From a virus, in the IMG/VR virus record IMGVR_UViG_3300014656_000029: a stretch of 62,895 bases of DNA. One strand, 5' to 3'. Shown here in pieces: positions 992 to 56,687 of this stretch. Under the pieces are notes generated by a model. It was given only the letters and a program-made list of their open reading frames with translations. It had not been told where the DNA came from and did no database searches. A program made the translations under genes and the position numbers. Each line of letters opens with the position of its first letter. The first letter of the stretch is position 1.

Positions 992-1622
992 GCAAAACCA
1001 CACAACAGTATTAAGCAAACTTGCTCCATTGTTTCAGCACCTCGGAGTTATAGAATTAGAAAAAAAAATAGCTCCCCATTTAATTGCAGATATACTGATA
1101 ACTACAGGAGACGGAAAACACATAGTGGTGGAGTATCAGAACTCCTGTAGAGATTCACATTACATTATAGGAAAAACTACAAAGTATAGTCAGTACGGCT
1201 TATACTGTGGATGGATATTTAATACAGATTTATTGAGTACAAAACAAGTAACTGAGGTTTTTATAACCTACGGCGGGATAGCCTATTTTTATGACGTATC
1301 TAAAGATATACTAATGTGTAATGATAAAATACTACTTACACCCCAGCAGTATATGGAAAAGAAAATTGATGTAGAGGATAACTTGATCTACAACAAATAT
1401 TCCTATGAAGATGTAGTGGAGAGGGTTGCGGCGTCTCGCGGATTTCAGTATAACAGGGAAGATTTTATAGAACCTGAATTATCCTATGAGTATTCTAAAA
1501 TCATAGATGATTCTGCGGATATAATAATGACGCAGTATTCAAAAATAGCCCTCAGAACTGATATTGTTTCGTATTTAAATATTGGTTTAAAAAGAGCCTA
1601 CTTCTCATTAGCTACTAAGTAA
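981..1622 (+). CDS. hypothetical protein
   Basis: 213-aa ORF; its start overlaps the previous ORF and it converges on the next gene. Confidence 0.35.
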   Translation: MRVKQNHTTVLSKLAPLFQHLGVIELEKKIAPHLIADILITTGDGKHIVVEYQNSCRDSHYIIGKTTKYSQYGLYCGWIFNTDLLSTKQVTEVFITYGGIAYFYDVSKDILMCNDKILLTPQQYMEKKIDVEDNLIYNKYSYEDVVERVAASRGFQYNREDFIEPELSYEYSKIIDDSADIIMTQYSKIALRTDIVSYLNIGLKRAYFSLATK

Positions 1623-3010
1623 GTATCTAACTCTTTAGATATCTCTTTCAATATAGCAATAAATTCTTTTTCTTTTCCTTTTACCATAAACGAGTTATAC
1701 ATAGGAATATCAGCAAGCTCTTTAGTACACTTATTTTCTATATTATTTGCTATTTTTAAAATAGCGTCAGCCAGCATCATTCCTTGCCACGGGAGAGGTT
1801 TAGCTGTTTCTATTCTTAATTTGAGTGCGTGTTTTGCTATCTCTTCGGAGTAAGCAATAACATCCTCTACTGTTTTTACTTCGTAGCCTTCTAAGTGTAA
1901 ATTAGATAAGTTCCATAAATCAGATTGGTGCTTAAGTTCTTTTTTAAGCGTAATATACGAAGCCTCCATCCAATTTTTAGTGCTACCTTCTTCTGAGTCA
2001 AAACCTAAAAGAACAACAGGGCTTCCACCTAAAATAATACCCAAACTAAACGCCGTACAGTCTAATGATACTCCTGCGTCAAAAGAAAACTGCTCTTGTA
2101 AAGTATTAAAAATCCAATCTTTATACACGGAACGTAGCGGAGCAAAAGTAAATGTTTTGAGGAAAGGAAGCTTCTGTAATTTAGGGTACGCAGCGATAGG
2201 TGAAACTAAAGAAGTTTCTTTTATATCATTAGGTTTAAATTTAGTTAATACTTTTTTATTTCTATCTGCACTGATTACAAAATGTGGTTTAATGCCTGCT
2301 TCTATAACTTCCCCAAAAGACTCTTCCGTACAGATAAAGATTATACGTTCTTCCATTCCTTTAAAATTAGTAATATGTTCTTTCAAAGATTCCCCGCAGG
2401 AACAGACAACTACAGGTTTTTTAAAGCATAGATTATGTAAGCCATTTATATCGGGGTTTTGTGTGTGCTTAGGTAAATTTCTAAGAACATTTTCTGCTTC
2501 TTCTTTTAACAAGGATTGTACTTCTTGTCTCATAGAGTTTAAAAGTATATTAATTCTTCTTTGTAGTGTTTCGGCAAATTCCGTAAACGCTTCTTTAAAG
2601 TATGTGGTCCAGTTTGGAGCGGCATATACAGCTATCCCACAATTAGCATCTAATACGTAAGCGGCTTCAAACTGTGTTATAAATACATTTAAATTACTAG
2701 AAATATACACTTTCTCGTTTCTAAATAGATCATCCCTTTCAGGAACGCACATTGCAAAAATATCATCTGTGGGTTCGTATATAAAAAGTTTATCAATATC
2801 TGGGTGCAGTTTTAAAATAGCCTCTGCGGTGTACCCAAAATCGTGACCAAACAAAACAACATATTTTGTAGGGTTAGTTGTTTTGTTTTGTTTTATATAG
2901 TTATAACAGAATTTTACGGGGTCCACAAAATCCTGTATAGGATTACCGTTTACTGATAAAATGTAAGCCCCTGATTTAGCTTTTACTTTTGTTAATTCAA
3001 CAGACTCCAT
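1598..3010 (-). CDS. Maf/DUF115-like (motility accessory factor, MptE-like) putative nonulosonic-acid glycosyltransferase, paralog A
   Basis: Motifs FGHDFGYT..IYEP, SSNLNV, VVCSCGESL (compare CSAGPSL in paralog B), PHFVIS, LLGFDSE. Likely start is the ATG at 3010, preceded by AAAGGA; the track start at 3040 is a TTG. Confidence 0.5.
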   Translation of the reverse strand: MESVELTKVKAKSGAYILSVNGNPIQDFVDPVKFCYNYIKQNKTTNPTKYVVLFGHDFGYTAEAILKLHPDIDKLFIYEPTDDIFAMCVPERDDLFRNEKVYISSNLNVFITQFEAAYVLDANCGIAVYAAPNWTTYFKEAFTEFAETLQRRINILLNSMRQEVQSLLKEEAENVLRNLPKHTQNPDINGLHNLCFKKPVVVCSCGESLKEHITNFKGMEERIIFICTEESFGEVIEAGIKPHFVISADRNKKVLTKFKPNDIKETSLVSPIAAYPKLQKLPFLKTFTFAPLRSVYKDWIFNTLQEQFSFDAGVSLDCTAFSLGIILGGSPVVLLGFDSEEGSTKNWMEASYITLKKELKHQSDLWNLSNLHLEGYEVKTVEDVIAYSEEIAKHALKLRIETAKPLPWQGMMLADAILKIANNIENKCTKELADIPMYNSFMVKGKEKEFIAILKEISKELDTYLVANEK

Positions 3011-3143
3011 ATTTATAACATCCTTTATTATTAGGTTCAATTACTAAAAAACGTTATTTAATAATATAGGAAGTATTAAAAAAAGACAAGTAAAAAATTA
3101 TACTCGCTAACTAATTAACCTTTTGTATAAAAGGAGTATCATA

Positions 3144-4815: not shown

Positions 4816-6474
4816 ATGACTACAGTAGGTTTAGAAGTAAAAGAAGCAGTTAGAACAAAAGATTTCTATTTCGTTATAGATGGAATTCCCATACAAAACC
4901 CTGAAGACCCTAAGGGGGAAACGCTAAAAGGTATTATGACAGCGGAACCTAAAGCTCCAGATAGTATAAAAATATTTATAATATTTGGTTTAGACTTTGG
5001 TTATACTATAGAAGCTACGAGAATGGTATATCCCAATTCTGTCATATTCTGCTATGAGCCAAGCGATCTTATTGTAGAAGAAGTAATGAGTAGGCGAGGT
5101 AAAGATTTAATGAAGATACCCAATCTGCTAATAACTTCCAATTTGAATGTATTAGTAAAAAGAATACATGATAAATATGGAAGTAGTGAGGCAGCTTATA
5201 TACTACCTTTGGACAAATGGGAAAAAATGTTTCCAAAGGAATTTGAAGAATTTTTAGAAAAGGTACAACGTATAGTTTTAACAAGAATGATGAGCAGAGT
5301 AACTAAAGAGATAAGATATAAACCTTGGGTAGATAATTTTCTTTTGAACTTACCTTTTTACCTTAATAGTAGTAATCATGGAGGAAAATTAATTAATTGT
5401 ATCCCCCCTAATACTCCCGTTATCATTTGTTCCGCAGGACCTTCCCTAAGTAAAAACGTAGAGCTATTAAAAGGGCTAGAAGATAAAGTAGTTATTGTTG
5501 CTGTGAACACTGCTTATCAATCCTTGAGGCATTATGGCATAGAGCCCCACATTGTAGCCTCTATAGAATCAGTGGACGGTTCCTCTATGCTCTCGGACTT
5601 TGAGAGCTTAAATACTACCTTAATGGCCCCTCTTGTTGTGCATCCTAATATGTTGAAGCTCCCCTTCAAGCAAAAAATTCTGTTTTCTAATTTTCCTTCT
5701 TTCTATTCTTCCTTGTTCAAATCTTTAGGGGAGAATGTTATGCTAGAACTAGGAGGGAGTGTCGCTTGTGCTGCTTTCGCTATAGGGTTTATGTTAGGTA
5801 GTTCTAATATCATATTAATAGGGCAGGATTTAGCTTTTGAAGATAAGGAAGAAATTGATTATTATTCAGAAGGAAGTAAATACAACAGCAAAAAAACAAT
5901 TATTGATAAACAAAAAAATCTAATTTACATTCCTTTTAAAAAAGAGATAGCTAAAGAAGATCCGCAGTTTCAATATTTGGGGGACGAAATACCAGATTAC
6001 GCAGCACTACCTTTAAAATATACAAAGGGATGGAATGGCGGAGATGAAAAAGTACCTACGCATAATCACTTTTTGTTCTTTATTAACTGGTTTGAATCTG
6101 CTTCTTTTAATCTTAGTAAAAGTAAAAATTTGTTTAACTGTACAGAGGGAGGAGCTTACTTAGAAGGCTTTATACACAAAACGCTACAAGAATCTTTAGA
6201 ACTGTGTCATGTTAATAAACTTAAGGACCATCATTTAAATAGTATTTTAGGATCGTTAGAAGCAAATCCATCTCTTAAAAAAACATTCAAAGAATATGCT
6301 GCTAATTTAATACATATGCTTAATGATGAGAAAACAACTATTGTAGAGCTAGAAAAGTATTCTGAATTATTTAATGCCTATACTATTGCTTGTAAAAATA
6401 ACAAAAGAGAAATGGTGGAAAAGTTTAAGGAATTTAAATCAAGATTTATACAAATGTATGAAGAGTTAAATTAG
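4816..6474 (+). CDS. Maf/DUF115-like putative glycosyltransferase, paralog B
   Basis: SD AAGGAG before the ATG. Motifs FGLDFGYT..CYEP, SNLNV, ICSAGPSL, PHIVAS, KLPF, LIGQDLAF. Clear paralog of 1598..3010. Confidence 0.55.
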   Translation: MTTVGLEVKEAVRTKDFYFVIDGIPIQNPEDPKGETLKGIMTAEPKAPDSIKIFIIFGLDFGYTIEATRMVYPNSVIFCYEPSDLIVEEVMSRRGKDLMKIPNLLITSNLNVLVKRIHDKYGSSEAAYILPLDKWEKMFPKEFEEFLEKVQRIVLTRMMSRVTKEIRYKPWVDNFLLNLPFYLNSSNHGGKLINCIPPNTPVIICSAGPSLSKNVELLKGLEDKVVIVAVNTAYQSLRHYGIEPHIVASIESVDGSSMLSDFESLNTTLMAPLVVHPNMLKLPFKQKILFSNFPSFYSSLFKSLGENVMLELGGSVACAAFAIGFMLGSSNIILIGQDLAFEDKEEIDYYSEGSKYNSKKTIIDKQKNLIYIPFKKEIAKEDPQFQYLGDEIPDYAALPLKYTKGWNGGDEKVPTHNHFLFFINWFESASFNLSKSKNLFNCTEGGAYLEGFIHKTLQESLELCHVNKLKDHHLNSILGSLEANPSLKKTFKEYAANLIHMLNDEKTTIVELEKYSELFNAYTIACKNNKREMVEKFKEFKSRFIQMYEELN

Positions 6475-28201: not shown

Positions 28202-29497
28202 ATGATTATAACGTACCTGTCTTTAAGAAAGAAGGTTTTTTTGAAAATACTGTTAGTTTATCCTCCTATATTTAGATCCGCCAATATTTACAGCACAACG
28301 CTTCCGCTTGGGTTGTTGCATGTTGCTACCTATTTACAAAATGAAGGAAATTCTGTAAGAGTATTAAATTTAGAAAATGGCGGAGAAATAAAAACAGTAT
28401 CTATAAAGGATCTTAGAACAGCTTACGCTGCTAACGATCCTAAACAATATGTGTTTAATGAGGAGTCTTCATACAGACAAGAATTTAAAAAAGCTGTTTT
28501 GGATTTTCAACCAGACTTAATAGGATTCTCTGTGGCAACAGAACAAATAGATGCGGCAAATGAAATGGCAAAAGATGCTAAAAAAATGTTTCCTAACGTT
28601 AAAATAGAAATGGGTAACATAAGAATTTCGCCTTCTGATTGGGTAAAGCAAGTATCTGCTGCGGCTTTAATGATAGAACCTGATTTAAGCTTCTTAGAAG
28701 GACAGAACACCGCAGAGAGTTTTGGTTCTGTAATGACCAGCATAGGCTGTCCTTTTTCTTGTGTGTACTGTGGAAGCCCCCAGCAATACAAGCGCAAGAT
28801 AACATATTTTGAAGAGGATTCCGTTAGAAGAAGATTACGTAACGGTAAAAATATGGGAGCAAAAGGATTCTATTTACTAGACGATACCATTACAATCAAC
28901 ATTAAAAGAGCGGAAAAAATAGCAGACATACTTTCTGAGTTTAATATGCCTTGGAGAATTCAAACTAGAGTTGAAAGTTTAGTAAATAATCTACATCTTA
29001 TTTCATATTTTAAAGATCGCGGTTGTGTTCAGATGAGCTTCGGCGTAGAAAGTGGCTCTACCAGAATCAGAAAACTGATGAAAAAGAATTTGAAAATAGA
29101 CGATGTATTAAAAGGAGTAGAGCTGCTGCGCCAGCATGATATGCCTTATACAGCAAATTTTATGATAGGCTTCCCTTCTGAAACAAATGATGATGTGGAT
29201 GACTCTATGGCTGTAATAAAAGCCATGAAACCAGAACGTATTTCTTGTGCTTCTATGGTTCCTTACCACGGAACAGAATTATACATTAAAAATCCTAAAT
29301 TTGTAGAAGCTGCAAACAACTGGAATTTCTGTCAATGGTCTCCATTCAACCCTACTTTTTTAACCGATAAAGAAGGCAACAGAATAGACGGACCTTCTTT
29401 TGATAAGATAAATCAAATATATGAAATGGTTGAAAACATTAATGATCACGTTTCTAGTAAAAAAACATTTAGTACTGTATTGAGTAATAGAAAATAG
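28202..29497 (+). CDS. B12-binding (class B) radical SAM enzyme
   Basis: N-terminal Rossmann-like B12-binding region (KILLVYPP...LPLGLLHVATYL) and a CPFSCVYC (Cx3Cx2C) cluster motif. Confidence 0.75.
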   Translation: MIITYLSLRKKVFLKILLVYPPIFRSANIYSTTLPLGLLHVATYLQNEGNSVRVLNLENGGEIKTVSIKDLRTAYAANDPKQYVFNEESSYRQEFKKAVLDFQPDLIGFSVATEQIDAANEMAKDAKKMFPNVKIEMGNIRISPSDWVKQVSAAALMIEPDLSFLEGQNTAESFGSVMTSIGCPFSCVYCGSPQQYKRKITYFEEDSVRRRLRNGKNMGAKGFYLLDDTITINIKRAEKIADILSEFNMPWRIQTRVESLVNNLHLISYFKDRGCVQMSFGVESGSTRIRKLMKKNLKIDDVLKGVELLRQHDMPYTANFMIGFPSETNDDVDDSMAVIKAMKPERISCASMVPYHGTELYIKNPKFVEAANNWNFCQWSPFNPTFLTDKEGNRIDGPSFDKINQIYEMVENINDHVSSKKTFSTVLSNRK

Positions 29498-45604: not shown

Positions 45605-45762
45605 TTTTGATTTACTTTCAATTTAATTAGTAATGCCTATATTTTTCTGTTTGAACGCTGCAAGCATTATTTTCTCGCTATTGTTTTTAAATTCCATTTA
45701 AATCTCCTCTAGCAGCAATATACCTCAATTAAAACCCTTATGTCAAGATTTTTTTATTTCAG

Positions 45763-45835
45763 CCCCTCGGGTTGGTTCCGCCCCAACGACACCGCGATTT
45801 TCAGTCGCGTGCTCTACTACCTGAGCTACCGAGGG
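45763..45835 (-). tRNA. tRNA-Phe(GAA), atypical T-loop
   Basis: Acceptor CCCTCGG/CCGAGGG, D-arm GCTCAGGTAGTAGAGC, anticodon arm CGCGA-CTGAAAA-TCGCG. The T-loop reads GGCGGAA, which is non-canonical. Confidence 0.55.
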
Positions 45836-45842
45836 AAAATTG

Positions 45843-45925
45843 TGAACGGAGAGGGATTCGAACCCTCGAAGGACTACCGAGAGATTAAAAGTCTCTTGCC
45901 TTTGACCTGACTTGGCTATCCGTTC
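45843..45925 (-). tRNA. tRNA with Ser-like type II scaffold (12-nt variable arm) but anticodon loop CTTTTAA (UUU)
   Basis: Acceptor GAACGGA/TCCGTTC, D-arm GCC-AAGTCAGGTCAAA-GGC, T-arm GAGGG-TTCGAAT-CCCTC, discriminator A. Confidence 0.5.
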
Positions 45926-45929
45926 AAGA

Positions 45930-47036
45930 TTAATACGCAATTTTTCTTTCACTACAGTGCCGCTTAAGCGTTTTTAAAGCTACTCCAATGATATCTGCAA
46001 CTTCATAAAGGGGTTTACTTTGCACTAATTTTTGTAATTCTGTAGAGGATGGCCATGTTACTTTCTTTCCTCTACTCCAGTGTCCCGCAGGGGGAGTTTC
46101 AATATTATATTTTTTACACCAATACCTTACTGTTTCTGTATTTACCGAAAAATCTCTTGCAATTTTAGGTATGGATTTTTCCCAAATAAGTTTTTTCAAA
46201 TCTTCTTTAGAGGGCCACAGGATATTACCCTTATGCGTGTCAGGATACTTTTTATTTTTAGATTTAGTTTTAGCCCAATATCCTCTAGGAGGCTTTTCTA
46301 TTCCGTGCTTCTTGCAACGTTTTTCTATAGCTTTACTAGAAACACCTAACTGCTTTGCTAATTGTACTGTGGACATTTCCCAAACTAATTTTTCTAACTC
46401 CTCGTTAGAGGGCCACTTAGCATCGTAATGTTCTGTGTTTTTACAACTAGTAGAACAGTATTTTCTAGTGCTTCGGCCTGTGGGGTAAAACACTTTTTTA
46501 CACACAGGACAAATAATTTCTTCTTTTTTACGACAATGGTCTCTAGTGTGTGTAGACTTGTCAGTAATTTTTAAATTAAGAGAAACATTATTACTCCGAT
46601 CCTCATCTTTGTGGTGAACTAATTCTGTTTCCTCTAAATATCTTCCTAAAACATTTTCCATAACAAGGCGGTGTACGTACACACTACCATTAACCCACGA
46701 ACGGGGATGGTTAGGGATGTACCCAGCAAGATATCCATTAACATTAAAAATAGGTATATTATCAATATCATGTTTTTGAAAAGGAGAATTTAATTTTTGT
46801 TTCTTCTCGCACTCCTTGTGTTCTCTTTTTCCATTCTTATATTCTACTGTAGTTAAAGTTAAGTCCTTATTACATATAGAACATTTTAATGTAACGGTTC
46901 TAGGTTTGGGAATATAATACTTCTTTACTCTTTCTCTATTGTATTCCTTATAACACAGTTCGCATCTGTTTCTTGCATATATTCCTTTTTTACCACAATA
47001 CATACAATATCTTTCCTCTTTTGTTTTTCTGGGCAT
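45930..47036 (-). CDS. HNH homing endonuclease with triplicated C-terminal DNA-binding module
   Basis: VHRLVMENVLG...VHHKDEDRSNN...H HNH motif. Three copies of WPSxEELxKLVWExS..LAKxLGVSxKAIEKRCKKHGIEKPPRGYW. The start is probably the ATG at 47036 (GGAG SD); the track start at 47102 would overlap a tRNA. Confidence 0.75.
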   Translation of the reverse strand: MPRKTKEERYCMYCGKKGIYARNRCELCYKEYNRERVKKYYIPKPRTVTLKCSICNKDLTLTTVEYKNGKREHKECEKKQKLNSPFQKHDIDNIPIFNVNGYLAGYIPNHPRSWVNGSVYVHRLVMENVLGRYLEETELVHHKDEDRSNNVSLNLKITDKSTHTRDHCRKKEEIICPVCKKVFYPTGRSTRKYCSTSCKNTEHYDAKWPSNEELEKLVWEMSTVQLAKQLGVSSKAIEKRCKKHGIEKPPRGYWAKTKSKNKKYPDTHKGNILWPSKEDLKKLIWEKSIPKIARDFSVNTETVRYWCKKYNIETPPAGHWSRGKKVTWPSSTELQKLVQSKPLYEVADIIGVALKTLKRHCSERKIAY

Positions 47037-47124
47037 TACGTATTCTCCACGAATATTAAAGTGCTCATAAACACTATATGTTAAAGAAATAAGTAAAGTC
47101 AACTATTATTTTTAGTAGCCACGG

Positions 47125-47198
47125 TGCCTCTAACAGAAGTCGAATCTGTAATCCTCCAATTTTAAGTCGAAGAGCGATACCAATTTGCTTATAGAGGC
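47125..47198 (-). tRNA. tRNA with anticodon UAA (Leu-type anticodon) on a type I (5-nt variable arm) scaffold
   Basis: Acceptor GCCTCTA/TAGAGGC, anticodon arm TTCGA-CTTAAAA-TTGGA, variable GGATT, T-arm ACAGA-TTCGACT-TCTGT. Confidence 0.55.
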
Positions 47199-47199
47199 G

Positions 47200-47287
47200 T
47201 GGTGCCCAAAGTGAGACTCGAACTCACACGCCTAGCTAAGGCAGTGGCTTTTGAAACCACCTTGTCTACCAATTCCAGCATTTGGGC
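47200..47287 (-). tRNA. tRNA-Leu(CAA), type II, CCA encoded
   Basis: Acceptor GCCCAAA/TTTGGGC, loop TTCAAAA, 16-nt variable arm, T-arm GTGAG-TTCGAGT-CTCAC, 3' ACCA. Confidence 0.75.
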
Positions 47288-47290
47288 ATG

Positions 47291-48079
47291 TTATATTTTT
47301 CCTGCTCTTTTCTTATTCCAATATCCTCTTGGAGGTTTTTGGATTCCGTACTTCTTACAACGCTTCTCTACAGCCTTATCAGAAACTCCAAGTTTCTTAG
47401 CTAACTGTACTGTAGACATCTCCCACACAAGTTTCTCTAGTTTCTCTTTAGTGGGCCAGTCTATTTTTTCTCTTGATTCTTTAGCACATTCTGTTGAGCA
47501 GTATTTACTTTTTTTATTTTGTGTTTTAAACGTATTGTCACAAACTAAACATATCTTTGTAAAAGTATTCTTACTTTTTCTCATTCTACAGGTGTACTTA
47601 TTTTTTCTTTTGCGCTTCTTAGTCTTTCTGTCTAACATATGCATAATGGTATGACAGTTTGGGCAAAGGATCTGGAGATTACATAATCTATTATCAATAT
47701 TATTTCCGTTTTTATGATGTAACTCTAAGGGAATACAATAGTGTAACCATTTTGTTTTATGGCACTTCTCACAAATATTTTCCTTTAACCCATAATATAC
47801 TATTTTTTCTCTTACTTTAGAGGATTTTATAAGAGACTCTTGGGTTAAATGGAGCTTTATAAATTCCTCTTTTGAAAGTTTAGGTCCAAGGGATGTTTCC
47901 TTATGTATCCCCTGTCCTTTAAAATATGAAATATCTATACCGTAATATACTATTAGTTTCTTAATACGTCTATAGTTTCCGCCAGAAGGAGTCAAGCCTA
48001 AAGCTATTAAGGTGCTGCGTATAGATAAAGTTTCTTTTACTGCATTCTCTAATATTTCTTTTGTGTACTTTGTGTTCAT
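47291..48079 (-). CDS. HNH homing endonuclease
   Basis: N-terminal KYTKEILENAVKE domain; CEKCH...HHKNGNNIDN...CPNCH HNH/zinc motif; C-terminal WPTKEKLEKLVWEMS...KPPRGYW module. Confidence 0.75.
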   Translation of the reverse strand: MNTKYTKEILENAVKETLSIRSTLIALGLTPSGGNYRRIKKLIVYYGIDISYFKGQGIHKETSLGPKLSKEEFIKLHLTQESLIKSSKVREKIVYYGLKENICEKCHKTKWLHYCIPLELHHKNGNNIDNRLCNLQILCPNCHTIMHMLDRKTKKRKRKNKYTCRMRKSKNTFTKICLVCDNTFKTQNKKSKYCSTECAKESREKIDWPTKEKLEKLVWEMSTVQLAKKLGVSDKAVEKRCKKYGIQKPPRGYWNKKRAGKI

Positions 48080-48123
48080 AACACTACTAATAGTGATATA
48101 TATCATACTTGTCAAATATAACT

Positions 48124-48200
48124 TGGTGCCTCTGAGAGAACTCGAATCTCCAACGTCCTGAGCCTAAATCAGGTCCCTCTACCAATTGGGGTACAGAGGC
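48124..48200 (-). tRNA. tRNA with anticodon UAG (Leu-type anticodon) on a type I scaffold, CCA encoded
   Basis: Acceptor GCCTCTG/CAGAGGC, anticodon arm CCTGA-TTTAGGC-TCAGG, variable ACGTT, T-loop TTCGAGT. Confidence 0.55.
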
Positions 48201-48205
48201 GTGTG

Positions 48206-48291
48206 TGTCCAAAGGGAGGGTCGAACTCCCACGCCCATCAAGGGCACTAGAACCTCAATCTAGTGTGTCTACCAAATTCCACCACTTGGAC
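48206..48291 (-). tRNA. tRNA-Leu(GAG), type II
   Basis: Acceptor GTCCAAG/TTTGGAC, anticodon arm CTAGA-TTGAGGT-TCTAG, 16-nt variable arm, T-arm GGGAG-TTCGACC-CTCCC. Confidence 0.75.
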
Positions 48292-49460: not shown

Positions 49461-49543
49461 CACAACACTTTACCGTCAAAATTAATAAATTTTTAACTGC
49501 CCTCATACTTATAGTTAATAAACATAAAAGGGAGGTGTTGCGG

Positions 49544-49616
49544 AGCGGGTGACGGGTGACGATCCCGCAACAATTAGATTGGAAATCTAAGGCTCTACCA
49601 GTTGAGCTACACCCGC
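49544..49616 (-). tRNA. tRNA-Gly(TCC)
   Basis: Acceptor GCGGGTG/CACCCGC, anticodon arm TTAGA-TTTCCAA-TCTAA. The T-loop is atypical (ATCGTCA). Confidence 0.6.
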
Positions 49617-49623
49617 AAAAGTG

Positions 49624-50163
49624 TTATTTACTATATATTTTTTTGGTCCAGTAACCTCTAGGCGGCTTTTCTATTCCATATTTTTTGCATCTTTTCTCCA
49701 CAGCTTTATCTGATACACCTAACTCTTTAGCAATATGTGTTGTGGGATTTTTCCACACAAGTATTTCTAAATCTTCTTTCGTAGGCCATACAGTTTTTTC
49801 CTTATGTTTATAGCTGCATTCTGTAGAACAGTACACCCTTAGATTACTGTGGGGGTAGAAACTTTTGTTACAGCCGGGACACACAATACTCCCAACAAAT
49901 CCTCCCTTATGTAAAGCAGAATGTTCGGAGGCAGTCATTAATTCTAAATTATAAGGATCATTATTTAGTTTATCTGCATCTTTATGGTGGACTTGCTCTC
50001 CATTATTTAAATATCTACAAATTTTATTCTCCATTACCAGTCGATGTATTCTAACACAGCCATTATGTTTTGCATTAGGATGTTCAGGATAGTAACAATA
50101 TAAATATCCTTTATCGTCAATTAACGTGCTTTTTAAATACTTTGCTGTATGGGAGCAAAACAT
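49624..50163 (-). CDS. HNH homing endonuclease (short form)
   Basis: IHRLVMEN...VHHKDADKLNN...H motif plus one C-terminal WPTKEDLEILVWK...KPPRGYW module. Confidence 0.75.
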   Translation of the reverse strand: MFCSHTAKYLKSTLIDDKGYLYCYYPEHPNAKHNGCVRIHRLVMENKICRYLNNGEQVHHKDADKLNNDPYNLELMTASEHSALHKGGFVGSIVCPGCNKSFYPHSNLRVYCSTECSYKHKEKTVWPTKEDLEILVWKNPTTHIAKELGVSDKAVEKRCKKYGIEKPPRGYWTKKIYSK

Positions 50164-52402: not shown

Positions 52403-53491
52403 ATGAACATTGCGCTTGTACACAACCTCTGCCCATCATCCAGATCAAATGATGATGACCAACCTCCCTCGGAACCGGATCCTTGTAAAAATTCTGACCT
52501 TTATGCAGAATGGGATGACCCCCAAACAATTTCAGCAGTAGCGGAAGCCTTAAGCGCAAAGCATACTGTTACTTTAATTGATGCAGATTTAGATGCTTAT
52601 TCTAAATTACGATATTTAAAACCAGATTTAGTTTTCAATATGGCAGAGGGTTTATATGGAGCTGGAAGAGAAGCCCAGATACCTGCAATGCTTGATATGC
52701 TATCTATTCCTTATACAGGAAGTGATCCCGTTACTTTAGGTATCTGTTTAGACAAGCAGAGAACAAAAGAAATATTATCGTGGCATAAAATACCTACGCC
52801 TAAATTTTATGTTGTTTCCGCTATAAAAGATTTACCACAAAGACCACATTATCCACTTATGGTAAAACCTTTGTTTGAAGGATCTTCTAAAGGTATTACA
52901 AATAAGTCTTTAGTTTTTAATAGGGTAGAATTAAAAAGACAGGTAGAATTTGTTTTCTCTAATTACGGAGAGAGTGTTTTAATTGAAGAATTTTTACCGG
53001 GGAGAGAATTTACAGTAGCTCTCTTGGGTAACGGTTCCTCTCTTACAGTGTTACCTATCGTAGAATTAGATTTTAAAGTTTTACCTTTGGGTGCTTTACC
53101 TATTTATTCCTATGAGGCTAAATGGGAATGGGACAAAGAAGAGGACCCTTTGCAAATTTTTAGTTGTCCCGCTGTGTTAAATGATATACTGGAAAAGAAA
53201 ATTGCAGACATGTGTATCCATACATTTAATGTTTTTAAATGTAGAGACTGGTGTAGGATAGATGTTCGCTTGGACGAGCAGGGAACACCAAACATAATAG
53301 AGTTAAATCCTCTTCCCGGAATACTACCTCGCCCCGAACAAAATAGTTGTTTCCCAAAGGCAGCAAGAGCGGCTGGTTTAAACTATACAGATATGATTCT
53401 AAGTGTAGTTAATGCTGCTCAGAGTAGAATGAATTTAAAGCAAGAAAAAATAGAAGCTGCTTGGACTAATAAAGCGGGTCAGGCAATTTAG
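52403..53491 (+). CDS. ddl: ATP-grasp enzyme, D-alanine--D-alanine ligase family
   Basis: AAGGAG SD. Ddl-like N-domain (DLVFNMAEGLYGAGREAQIPAMLDMLSIPYTGSDP), central KHTV/KPLFEGSSKGI segment, C-terminal ATP-grasp region. Confidence 0.75.
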   Translation: MNIALVHNLCPSSRSNDDDQPPSEPDPCKNSDLYAEWDDPQTISAVAEALSAKHTVTLIDADLDAYSKLRYLKPDLVFNMAEGLYGAGREAQIPAMLDMLSIPYTGSDPVTLGICLDKQRTKEILSWHKIPTPKFYVVSAIKDLPQRPHYPLMVKPLFEGSSKGITNKSLVFNRVELKRQVEFVFSNYGESVLIEEFLPGREFTVALLGNGSSLTVLPIVELDFKVLPLGALPIYSYEAKWEWDKEEDPLQIFSCPAVLNDILEKKIADMCIHTFNVFKCRDWCRIDVRLDEQGTPNIIELNPLPGILPRPEQNSCFPKAARAAGLNYTDMILSVVNAAQSRMNLKQEKIEAAWTNKAGQAI

Positions 53492-56597: not shown

Positions 56598-56604
56598 AAG
56601 ATAG

Positions 56605-56687
56605 AGACTACGGTGGGATTTGAACCCACGAGGTTTTCACCCAACGGTTTTGCAGACCGCATCCTTAAACCACTCGGACACGTAGTC
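56605..56687 (-). tRNA. tRNA with anticodon GCA (Cys) and U73, but Ser/Tyr-like D-arm and 14-nt variable arm
   Basis: Acceptor GACTACG/CGTAGTC, D-arm TCC-GAGTGGTTTAA-GGA, anticodon arm GCGGT-CTGCAAA-ACCGT, T-arm GTGGG-TTCAAAT-CCCAC. Confidence 0.5.

Follow-up and report, generated by a model that had tools for sequence, protein, structure and literature searches.

A long variable arm is found only on tRNA-Leu, tRNA-Ser and bacterial tRNA-Tyr according to a 2023 review, in which Leu and Ser tRNAs are described as armed everywhere outside animal mitochondria (PMC9976931). Exceptions to this class rule are already known. Streptomyces coelicolor possesses a type I tRNA-Leu(CAA) with a short variable loop (Fan et al. 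2019, PMC6614811), nematode nev-tRNAs combine a class II scaffold with the anticodon of a class I amino acid (Hamashima et al. 2012, PMC3333845), and the long-arm allo-tRNAs and selC*-like tRNA-Cys display a mismatch between anticodon and scaffold (Mukai et al. 2017, PMC5389517). In this study, we analyzed a stretch of 62,895 nucleotides (nt) from the IMG/VR virus record IMGVR_UViG_3300014656_000029, hereafter the window, which is a piece of a large (huge) uncultured phage. Three genes of its tRNA island contradict the class rule in both directions: a tRNA with the lysine anticodon UUU possesses a type II scaffold with a variable arm, and two leucine tRNAs, with anticodons UAA and UAG, are of type I and lack it. 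A literature search returned no account of a type II tRNA-Lys with standard 7/5 acceptor/T arrangement, or of a type I tRNA-Leu, as recurrent phage families.

The reading that we favor, with a probability of roughly 0.55, is that all three tRNAs work in the phage and keep the amino acid identity of their anticodons, with only the variable arm remodelled, possibly as an escape from nucleases. Leu(UAA) and Leu(UAG) would be leucine tRNAs that lost the long arm and retain the elements read by leucyl-tRNA synthetase (LeuRS). The UUU tRNA would be a lysine tRNA on a five-arm scaffold with a mini variable hairpin, and it probably carries Lys and reads AAA, the commonest codon of the phage, judging from structure, conservation, identity elements and genomic context, from which we infer charging. 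The changed shape next to the anticodon stem may hinder the tRNA-cutting defence nucleases of the host from cleaving such tRNAs, with acceptance by synthetases and ribosomes left intact. Taken separately, cognate identity and function are likely; the motive of nuclease evasion is tentative and falls short of even odds.

Structure and identity elements of the three tRNAs

A total of 21 tRNA genes were predicted on the minus strand of the window by ARAGORN, and the same genes were recovered by the Rfam tRNA covariance model at a score threshold of 29 bits. The UUU tRNA is 83 nt long (E value 3.4e-12 with the Rfam model), with an acceptor stem of 7 bp, a D stem of 3 bp carrying a long D loop, and a normal T arm with a stem of 5 bp. 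The anticodon loop CUUUUAA lies at 45891-45885 (anticodon at 45889-45887), and the variable region of 12 nt, CGGUAGUCCUUC, at 45879-45868, forms a 2-bp stem followed by a 3-nt UUC tail. Both the loop and the 12-nt arm had been described in the initial annotation and are corroborated here. The minimum free energy (MFE) fold is a five-arm cloverleaf, the discriminator is A73, and CCA is not encoded.

A Ser-like D arm had been noted for this scaffold. A73, the 2-bp variable stem and the 3-nt UUC tail are instead the architecture of bacterial tRNA-Tyr and are not specifically Ser-like. The discriminator of tRNA-Ser is G73, and besides A73 the UUU tRNA departs from the Ser set in its short variable stem with a 3-nt tail and in its anticodon; Ser was also the least likely call for its acceptor stem in a naive Bayes classifier built on acceptor stem and discriminator, which is 57-64% accurate over 20 classes. 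Having G15-C48 rather than A15-U48, it does not possess the Leu core. When compared with the Tyr set, U35, A73, the arm and G1-C72 are present, with G34 and A36 both replaced by U. The lysine identity set consists of the anticodon and A73 (PMC9976931), and the UUU tRNA carries all three anticodon bases together with A73. The class I scaffold of tRNA-Lys is absent, as there is neither a 4-5-nt variable loop nor a 4-bp D stem.

In the window, AAA is the commonest codon (7.3% of 16,850 codons) and sits at conserved Lys/Arg positions of a DnaJ J domain; Lys and Tyr account for 9.4% and 4.7% of residues, respectively, and Leu is most often encoded by TTA. The tRNA array covers about 16 amino acids, and its sole Lys tRNA across the 63-kb window and the 10 kb that follow is the UUU tRNA. 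A missense tRNA acting on the most-used codon would be very costly.

Leu(UAA) has the anticodon loop CUUAAAA (anticodon at 47164-47162) and a variable region of 4-5 nt at about 47154-47150, and Leu(UAG) has the loop UUUAGGC with G37 (anticodon at 48166-48164) and a variable region of 5 nt at 48156-48152. The short arms reported earlier for both genes were thus recovered, and the long variable arm of a class II tRNA-Leu is missing from each of them. LeuRS of E. coli recognises A73, A14, the A15-U48 Levitt pair and G18G19 of the D loop (PMC9976931; elements also in PMC6614811), and ignores the anticodon and the long arm, armless variants staying active (PMC9976931). In our tally of identity elements, both type I genes carry A73, U8, A14 and A15-U48. 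Their D arm, which matches that of their type II neighbours, consists of a 3-bp stem and an 11-nt loop, AAUUGGUA(G/U), with G18G19. Because the two genes carry the LeuRS elements and a Leu D arm, their isotype features agree with the anticodon. Such agreement had been named beforehand as the finding that would refute the proposal, and it holds for the Leu tRNAs and, largely at the level of its family, for the UUU tRNA. On these elements, the type I Leu tRNAs of the window are probably leucylated and decode UUA/UUG and CUN. Leu(UAA) lies 1 nt downstream of Leu(CAA) and Leu(UAG) 4 nt downstream of Leu(GAG), both of which are ordinary type II genes as initially annotated, and this tandem arrangement suggests dimeric precursors.

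All three tRNAs, and a type II tRNA-Cys(GCA) of the same island, show the standard 7/5 acceptor/T arrangement. An 8/4 geometry (allo-tRNAs have 8/4 or 9/3) and an intron were rejected, ARAGORN and the covariance model agreeing on a 7/5 cloverleaf with 7-nt anticodon loops. A shifted register was rejected for all three as well, since no other register yields a different anticodon.

Recurrent families in phage tRNA arrays

The odd tRNAs were compared with others at the family level. A megablast search of the island against phages gave no match, patterns back-translated from a Ddl-like protein gave none in viral contigs, and a homologue search with a 220-aa neighbour protein returned only the protein itself. 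Viral contigs were surveyed by a pattern scan for CUUUUAA in type II geometry, which gave at least 120 loci that were then passed to ARAGORN. At least 96-98 type II UUU tRNAs were confirmed, depending on the cut-off for length and variable region, with at least 84-86 unique sequences. Among the matches listed, 74 have A as discriminator, 23 have U and a single one has the G typical of Ser. The neighbours within 300 nt are mostly Lys tRNAs (46 records: 19 type I Lys(CUU), 16 type I Lys(UUU), six type II UUU and five type II CUU), with no Tyr tRNA among them, and 27 of 93 loci combine a type I with a type II Lys(UUU). The two types may also have acceptor stems in common, namely GGACCG with U73 in one metagenome array (L052) and GC(G/A)CCGG with A73 in Ruegeria phage V10. 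A four-way acceptor-stem classifier called Lys for 42 of 84 type II UUU tRNAs, 3 of 33 true Tyr and 1 of 51 true Ser tRNAs. The neighbour of the window gene is Phe, and Lys-like acceptors together with Lys neighbours hold at the family level.

The short-variable-arm subfamily of the window gene was found in 27 metagenome contigs, with the consensus GGACGGG..CGC-NNNN-GC-UUC..CCCGUUCA. An alignment of 14 members shows 99.7% of cells paired and compensatory change, on both sides, in 19 of 22 pairs. The variable mini-stem of the window gene is kept through a CG-to-GC swap, and no member departs from the loop CUUUUAA, the CUUC tail, A14, G15 or G18G19. The adjacency of type II Lys and Phe seen in the window is repeated in arrays L383, L384 and L391, and a window-like module of type II Lys next to Phe with type II Cys nearby is present in L383, L384, L389, L391 and L397.

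The type I Leu tRNAs likewise form a family. A total of 42 unique sequences were taken from the fetched phage loci of three pattern-scan sets, and A15-U48, A14 and A73 were each found in 38 of them; the 3-bp stem with an 11-nt loop is the commonest D arm (23/42). Other type I tRNAs have A15-U48 in just 34% and D stems of 4 bp. In a sample selected for neither Leu nor Lys, six of 41 Leu tRNAs are type I. Both odd kinds of tRNA are thus recurrent families of phage tRNA arrays and not one-offs.

Cultured phages are included. In Cronobacter phage CR3, both Leu(CAA) and Leu(UAG) are of type I, and its Leu(UAG) matches that of the window with 89% identity over 36 nt. Ruegeria phage V10 has a type I Leu(CAA). 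Type II tRNA-Lys(CUU) was found in the jumbo phages Caulobacter CcrBL9 with its relatives, Xanthomonas XacN1 and Ruegeria V10, where these genes are annotated plainly as tRNA-Lys without comment. A type II tRNA-Thr(UGU) was seen in Vibrio phage 2.275.O. The anticodon of type II Lys, CUU in the three cultured phages and UUU in the AT-rich window, suggests that it may track the Lys codon preference.

Long arms are present in the same arrays also on Asn(GUU), Thr(UGU), Lys(CUU), Trp, Met, Ile(UAU), His, Cys and Gly tRNAs. Among the loci listed, they are never gained by Phe, Asp, Ala and Thr(GGU), and almost never by Val and Pro. A second, differently selected sample gave the same arm-gaining isotypes (Lys, Asn, Thr, Ile(UAU), Trp, Met, His and Cys), so that phages commonly break the class rule in a reproducible set of isotypes. 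These isotypes keep their own discriminators (Asn G 9/10, Trp G 9/9, Cys U 2/2, His C 2/2). As the discriminators match the isotype of the anticodon, this pattern argues that identity would follow the anticodon with the arm as an add-on, and that identity and scaffold class appear separable in nature. The type II Cys(GCA) of the window, overlooked in the initial annotation, is the same phenomenon in a third isotype. A GAAA loop on a 4-bp stem makes up its variable arm. The gene has U73, the classifier assigns its acceptor stem to Cys, and type II Cys homologues adjoin type II Lys tRNAs in arrays L383, L389 and L397.

A control scan with the Phe anticodon in type II geometry also gave at least 120 loci, absolute frequencies being not comparable between scans. 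Although U33 is near-universal in tRNAs, the control was dominated by a phage tRNA-Ser(UGA) with C33 and the loop CCUGAAA, which makes up at least 60 of the at least 120 loci listed (L133, L135-L138, L141 and about 55 more viral loci).

Bacterial and archaeal genomes yielded 14 type II UUU tRNAs. About half of them sit in dense tRNA arrays, which probably belong to prophages or to phage sequence that was mis-binned. Five Actinomycetota assemblies (L309 5179-5263, L319 2977-3061, L320, L364 and L367) share a conserved type II tRNA-Lys(UUU) in single copy, in ordinary chromosomal context outside tRNA arrays, by PPK2 and DsbA or by thiolase and ADH. No integrase was found among the scanned flanking ORFs (open reading frames), and the variable arm has the form of the main phage class, with a stem, a GAAA loop and a CAUC tail.

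Possible nuclease motive and alternative explanations

The UUU tRNA is the phage counterpart of tRNA-Lys(UUU), which bacterial tRNA-cutting defences attack preferentially; PrrC, PARIS AriB and bacterial Schlafen all act on it (PMC12409363, PMC13056530). The AriB cut in tRNA-Lys(UUU), Thr(UGU) and Asn(GUU) falls at 40|41, and T5 escapes PARIS via variant tRNAs (PMC12409363). This cut site adjoins the point where the variable arm emerges. One bacterial Schlafen cleaves the anticodon arm of tRNA-Lys(UUU) (PMC13056530). Human SLFN11 is specific for type II tRNAs according to work cited in that paper, which provides a mirror-image rationale for Leu tRNAs shedding the arm. Around the cut site, the UUU tRNA keeps U36-A-A-U39-C40 and has U in place of A at position 41. 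Arm gain is enriched in decoders of codons starting with A (odds ratio 3.3) and in the PARIS set Asn(GUU), Thr(UGU) and Thr(CGU) (odds ratio 4.2), the sequences in both comparisons being non-independent and the P values therefore optimistic. The odd tRNAs are possibly nuclease-resistant, and they look like working tRNAs rather than decoys. Of the proposal that they serve against anticodon nucleases, the link to nucleases is therefore retained as putative resistance and the decoy role is disfavored.

Several points weigh against cognate, nuclease-resistant tRNAs. The best relative found, the 485-kb uncultured phage LR745208 (43% amino acid identity on one 719-aa protein), has canonical Leu, Lys and Cys tRNAs only in the 200 kb scanned. 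None of 17 phage Lys(UUU) tRNAs is type II in the sample not selected for them, and because of this the type II class is a minority among phage Lys(UUU) tRNAs. Among phage Lys tRNAs, the two types are not clearly distinguished at the AriB site (positions 39-41). The source contig (ENA ERZ27247128 k141_1754741, 121 kb) may hold an ordinary Lys tRNA in its other 48 kb. The acceptor-stem classifier does not separate Lys (-19.9) from Tyr (-20.5) for the window UUU tRNA, which also carries the published elements of bacterial tyrosyl-tRNA synthetase (TyrRS), namely A73, U35, G1-C72 and a long arm. The type I tRNA-Leu(CAA) of S. coelicolor is a substrate of its own LeuRS and not of the E. coli enzyme (PMC6614811). 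Charging by the host enzyme is therefore not to be assumed and, by analogy, the type I Leu tRNAs of the window may be rejected by the LeuRS of their host.

Lysyl-tRNA synthetase (LysRS) raises a similar concern. The class II enzyme approaches the tRNA from the variable-loop side and might be hindered by the arm, and the class I enzyme leaves the variable side facing solvent. Camouflage by an arm may be possible only where the host LysRS tolerates it. Ruegeria, a host genus of the type II Lys family, is alphaproteobacterial. Class I LysRS is present in most alphaproteobacteria, including Caulobacter, and in Streptomyces (PMC1475646). Xanthomonas, with class II LysRS, is a counter-example to this lead.

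A more ambitious version of nuclease evasion is that phage arrays uncouple class I/II from identity in a directed manner, with arms added to nuclease-cut isotypes (Lys, Thr(UGU) and Asn, also Cys, Trp, Met and His) and removed from Leu as camouflage against shape-reading tRNases, recognition by the synthetases being preserved. We regard it as somewhat unlikely. Also unlikely, and the main rival to evasion, is that the tRNAs are cognate and functional and that arm gain and loss are neutral, arising by drift and recombination within the tolerance of the synthetases; the isotype bias would then mirror which synthetases ignore the variable region. This is consistent with class switches being patchy, missing from LR745208 and from the 17 unselected Lys(UUU) tRNAs, with the lack of a signature at the nuclease cut site, and with the many island tRNAs having odd T loops or end pairs, which suggest generally relaxed constraint. 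The identity sets of LeuRS and LysRS omit the arm as well (PMC9976931). However, the variable hairpin and CUUC tail are invariant or compensated across the 14 diverged members, the same few isotypes gain arms in two separate samples, and the presence of both Lys types side by side in 27 of the 93 loci among the matches listed looks like maintained specialisation.

Mischarging, as raised by the initial annotation, is improbable. TyrRS (or LeuRS or seryl-tRNA synthetase) would charge the UUU tRNA by its scaffold and place a wrong residue at AAA/AAG, as statistical recoding or host sabotage comparable to nev-tRNAs (PMC3333845) and allo-tRNAs (PMC5389517). The Tyr elements listed above, with the Tyr-style variable arm, fit this explanation; the nearest annotated relatives of the UUU tRNA in BLAST are tRNA-Leu and tRNA-Tyr genes, and the anticodon loop of the single Tyr-type tRNA observed in the island is defective, at 6 nt. 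Yet AAA is the commonest codon and occupies conserved lysines, whereas nev-tRNAs read rare codons (PMC3333845), and G34, a TyrRS contact, is absent. G15-C48 instead of A15-U48 counts against LeuRS, and A73 with a 2-bp variable stem counts against the seryl enzyme. The family lies in Lys gene clusters with acceptor stems common to type I Lys tRNAs, arm-gaining tRNAs of other isotypes keep the discriminator of their anticodon, and the two Leu tRNAs possess Leu elements.

A role outside translation, with the tRNAs as nuclease decoys or sponges, or as aminoacyl donors or primers kept off the ribosome, is more improbable still. A normal Lys(UUU) stands beside the type II copy in the 27 of 93 listed loci, where the latter is possibly an extra, and tRNA-dependent non-ribosomal uses exist in phages (PMC13219725). 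But the UUU tRNA is the only Lys tRNA in 73 kb within its array of about 16 amino acids, its anticodon seems to follow the Lys codon preference, and the elements for EF-Tu and the ribosome look normal (7/5, T loop UUCGAAU, U33/A37). Decay into pseudogenes in an island churned by homing endonucleases, which had also been considered and for which one may cite the flanking HNH ORFs, the MFE structure of Leu(UAA) that is not a cloverleaf and the defective-looking neighbouring tRNA with the 6-nt loop, is largely refuted by scores of 48-61 bits against the threshold of 29, intact stems and conserved tertiary pairs, family-wide compensatory change, identity of the overlapping part of the island in an independent assembly, and the repeated occurrence of such tRNAs in cultured phages as well as in hundreds of phage contigs.

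The tRNA island and comparison with known systems

The window has 35% GC, and its ORFs are dense, short and mostly in one orientation. The features discussed in this study are collected in Table 1.

Table 1. Location of tRNA genes and interleaved ORFs in the window, and of odd tRNAs in cultured phages.
Feature	Position	Strand	Evidence
Type II (five-arm) tRNA, anticodon UUU	45843..45925	-	ARAGORN; Rfam 61.2 bits; five-arm MFE fold
Type I tRNA-Leu(UAA)	47125-47198 (feature-list start 47123)	-	ARAGORN; Rfam 48.6 bits; identity elements
Ordinary type II tRNA-Leu(CAA), encoded CCA	47200..47287	-	ARAGORN; Rfam
Type I tRNA-Leu(UAG), encoded CCA	48127-48200 (feature-list start 48124)	-	ARAGORN; Rfam 54.1 bits; identity elements
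Ordinary type II tRNA-Leu(GAG)	48205..48291	-	ARAGORN; Rfam
tRNA-Phe(GAA), 6 nt downstream of UUU tRNA	45762..45835	-	ARAGORN; Rfam
Type II tRNA-Cys(GCA)	56604..56687	-	ARAGORN; Rfam 55.6 bits; fold
HNH endonuclease ORF with C-terminal helix-turn-helix, between tRNA pairs	45930..47102	-	Pfam HNH_3 and RWP-RK-like helix-turn-helix
ORF with same C-terminal helix-turn-helix, between the two Leu tRNA pairs	47291..48115	-	Pfam HTH_50 and RWP-RK, both below curated cut-offs
Odd tRNAs of cultured phages (CcrBL9, XacN1, V10, CR3, Vibrio 2.275.O)	L399 3001-3087; L400 3001-3089; L401 2990-3077 and 5417-5492; L123 60-136 and 2495-2572; L124 4367-4449		

Three ORFs are interleaved with the tRNA genes, the two in Table 1 and a third at 49624-50163 (-), and have a common C-terminal RWP-RK-like helix-turn-helix; the HNH_3 endonuclease domain is present in the first and the third. 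These ORFs are probably homing endonucleases, mobile and reshuffling the island.

Several tRNAs of the island deviate from universal tRNA features. tRNA-Phe(GAA) has C1-G72, G73 and the T loop GGCGGAA without U54-U55, and tRNA-Gly(UCC) at 49542-49616 (-) has the T loop AUCGUCA. A Tyr-like type II tRNA at 60698-60779 (-), also absent from the initial annotation, has anticodon GUA in a 6-nt anticodon loop, CUGUAA, and was given no assignment by ARAGORN. The same sequence occurs in an independent assembly (Logan SRR6514274), its MFE fold departs from the cloverleaf, and an orthodox Tyr tRNA was not found in the island. In LR745208, a probable type I tRNA-Lys (L126 42332-42406) was given the 4-base anticodon 'ttta' by ARAGORN, which amounts to an 8-nt loop or a mispaired stem.

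Among about 40 ORFs of the window, searches of Pfam and PHROGs found no aminoacyl-tRNA synthetase, tRNA repair or tRNA modification gene that would explain the odd tRNAs. The ORFs at 1598-3040 (-), 4816-6474 (+), 28202-29497 (+), 39290-40075 (-) and 52403-53491 (+) encode two MptE/Maf-like proteins, two radical SAM proteins, of which one is a B12-binding enzyme, and a D-Ala-D-Ala-ligase-like ATP-grasp enzyme, the gene of the last lying within the tRNA island. An 824-aa ORF at 30021-32495 (+) has major-vault-protein shoulder, vault repeat and Band 7/SPFH domains, which is unusual for a phage. A Band 7 protein is also encoded by XacN1, adjoining its Lys and Tyr tRNAs.

If changes of the arm do confer resistance to tRNases, they would represent a new structural route of counter-defence beside point mutations, and the tRNAs would be natural, ready-made scaffolds for orthogonal or nuclease-proof tRNA engineering. 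Caulobacter CcrBL9, Xanthomonas XacN1, Ruegeria V10 and Cronobacter CR3 are cultured systems that carry odd tRNAs.

When compared with known systems, the type I tRNA-Leu of S. coelicolor resembles the window genes in its short variable loop and in being a bacterial-type Leu tRNA, and it coexists with long-arm Leu isoacceptors that are all charged by one LeuRS. It differs in being chromosomal, a single isoacceptor, and dependent on a specialised LeuRS domain (PMC6614811). The window genes are phage-borne, have the anticodons UAA and UAG, stand in tandem with type II genes and belong to a broad phage family, which, unlike the S. coelicolor case, includes CR3 with an enterobacterial host genus. 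The nev-tRNAs derive from tRNA-Leu, are charged with Leu, and are weakly expressed readers of rare codons (PMC3333845). The UUU tRNA shares their combination of scaffold and anticodon, but it has no Leu core, reads the commonest codon in our interpretation, carries Lys identity elements and, at the family level, has Lys gene neighbours. Allo-tRNAs, with which a long arm and the mismatch are shared, even for Cys, have 8/4 or 9/3 geometry and Ser or Ala identity (PMC5389517), in contrast to the 7/5 geometry and the discriminator matching the anticodon in the tRNAs described here. Bacterial tRNA-Tyr is similar to the UUU tRNA in the 3-bp D stem, the short variable hairpin with its 3-nt 3' tail, A73, U35 and G1-C72, and differs in its anticodon, GUA instead of UUU; the UUU family clusters with Lys and not with Tyr genes. 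Altered yet functional phage copies of nuclease targets are also known, such as tRNA-Lys(UUU), Thr(UGU) and Asn(GUU) of T5 against PARIS AriB (PMC11464382, PMC12409363) and anticodon-loop variants (PMC10264068). These known escapes are point substitutions in the anticodon stem-loop, whereas in the families described here a whole arm is gained or lost, and it is this remodelling that may confer resistance.

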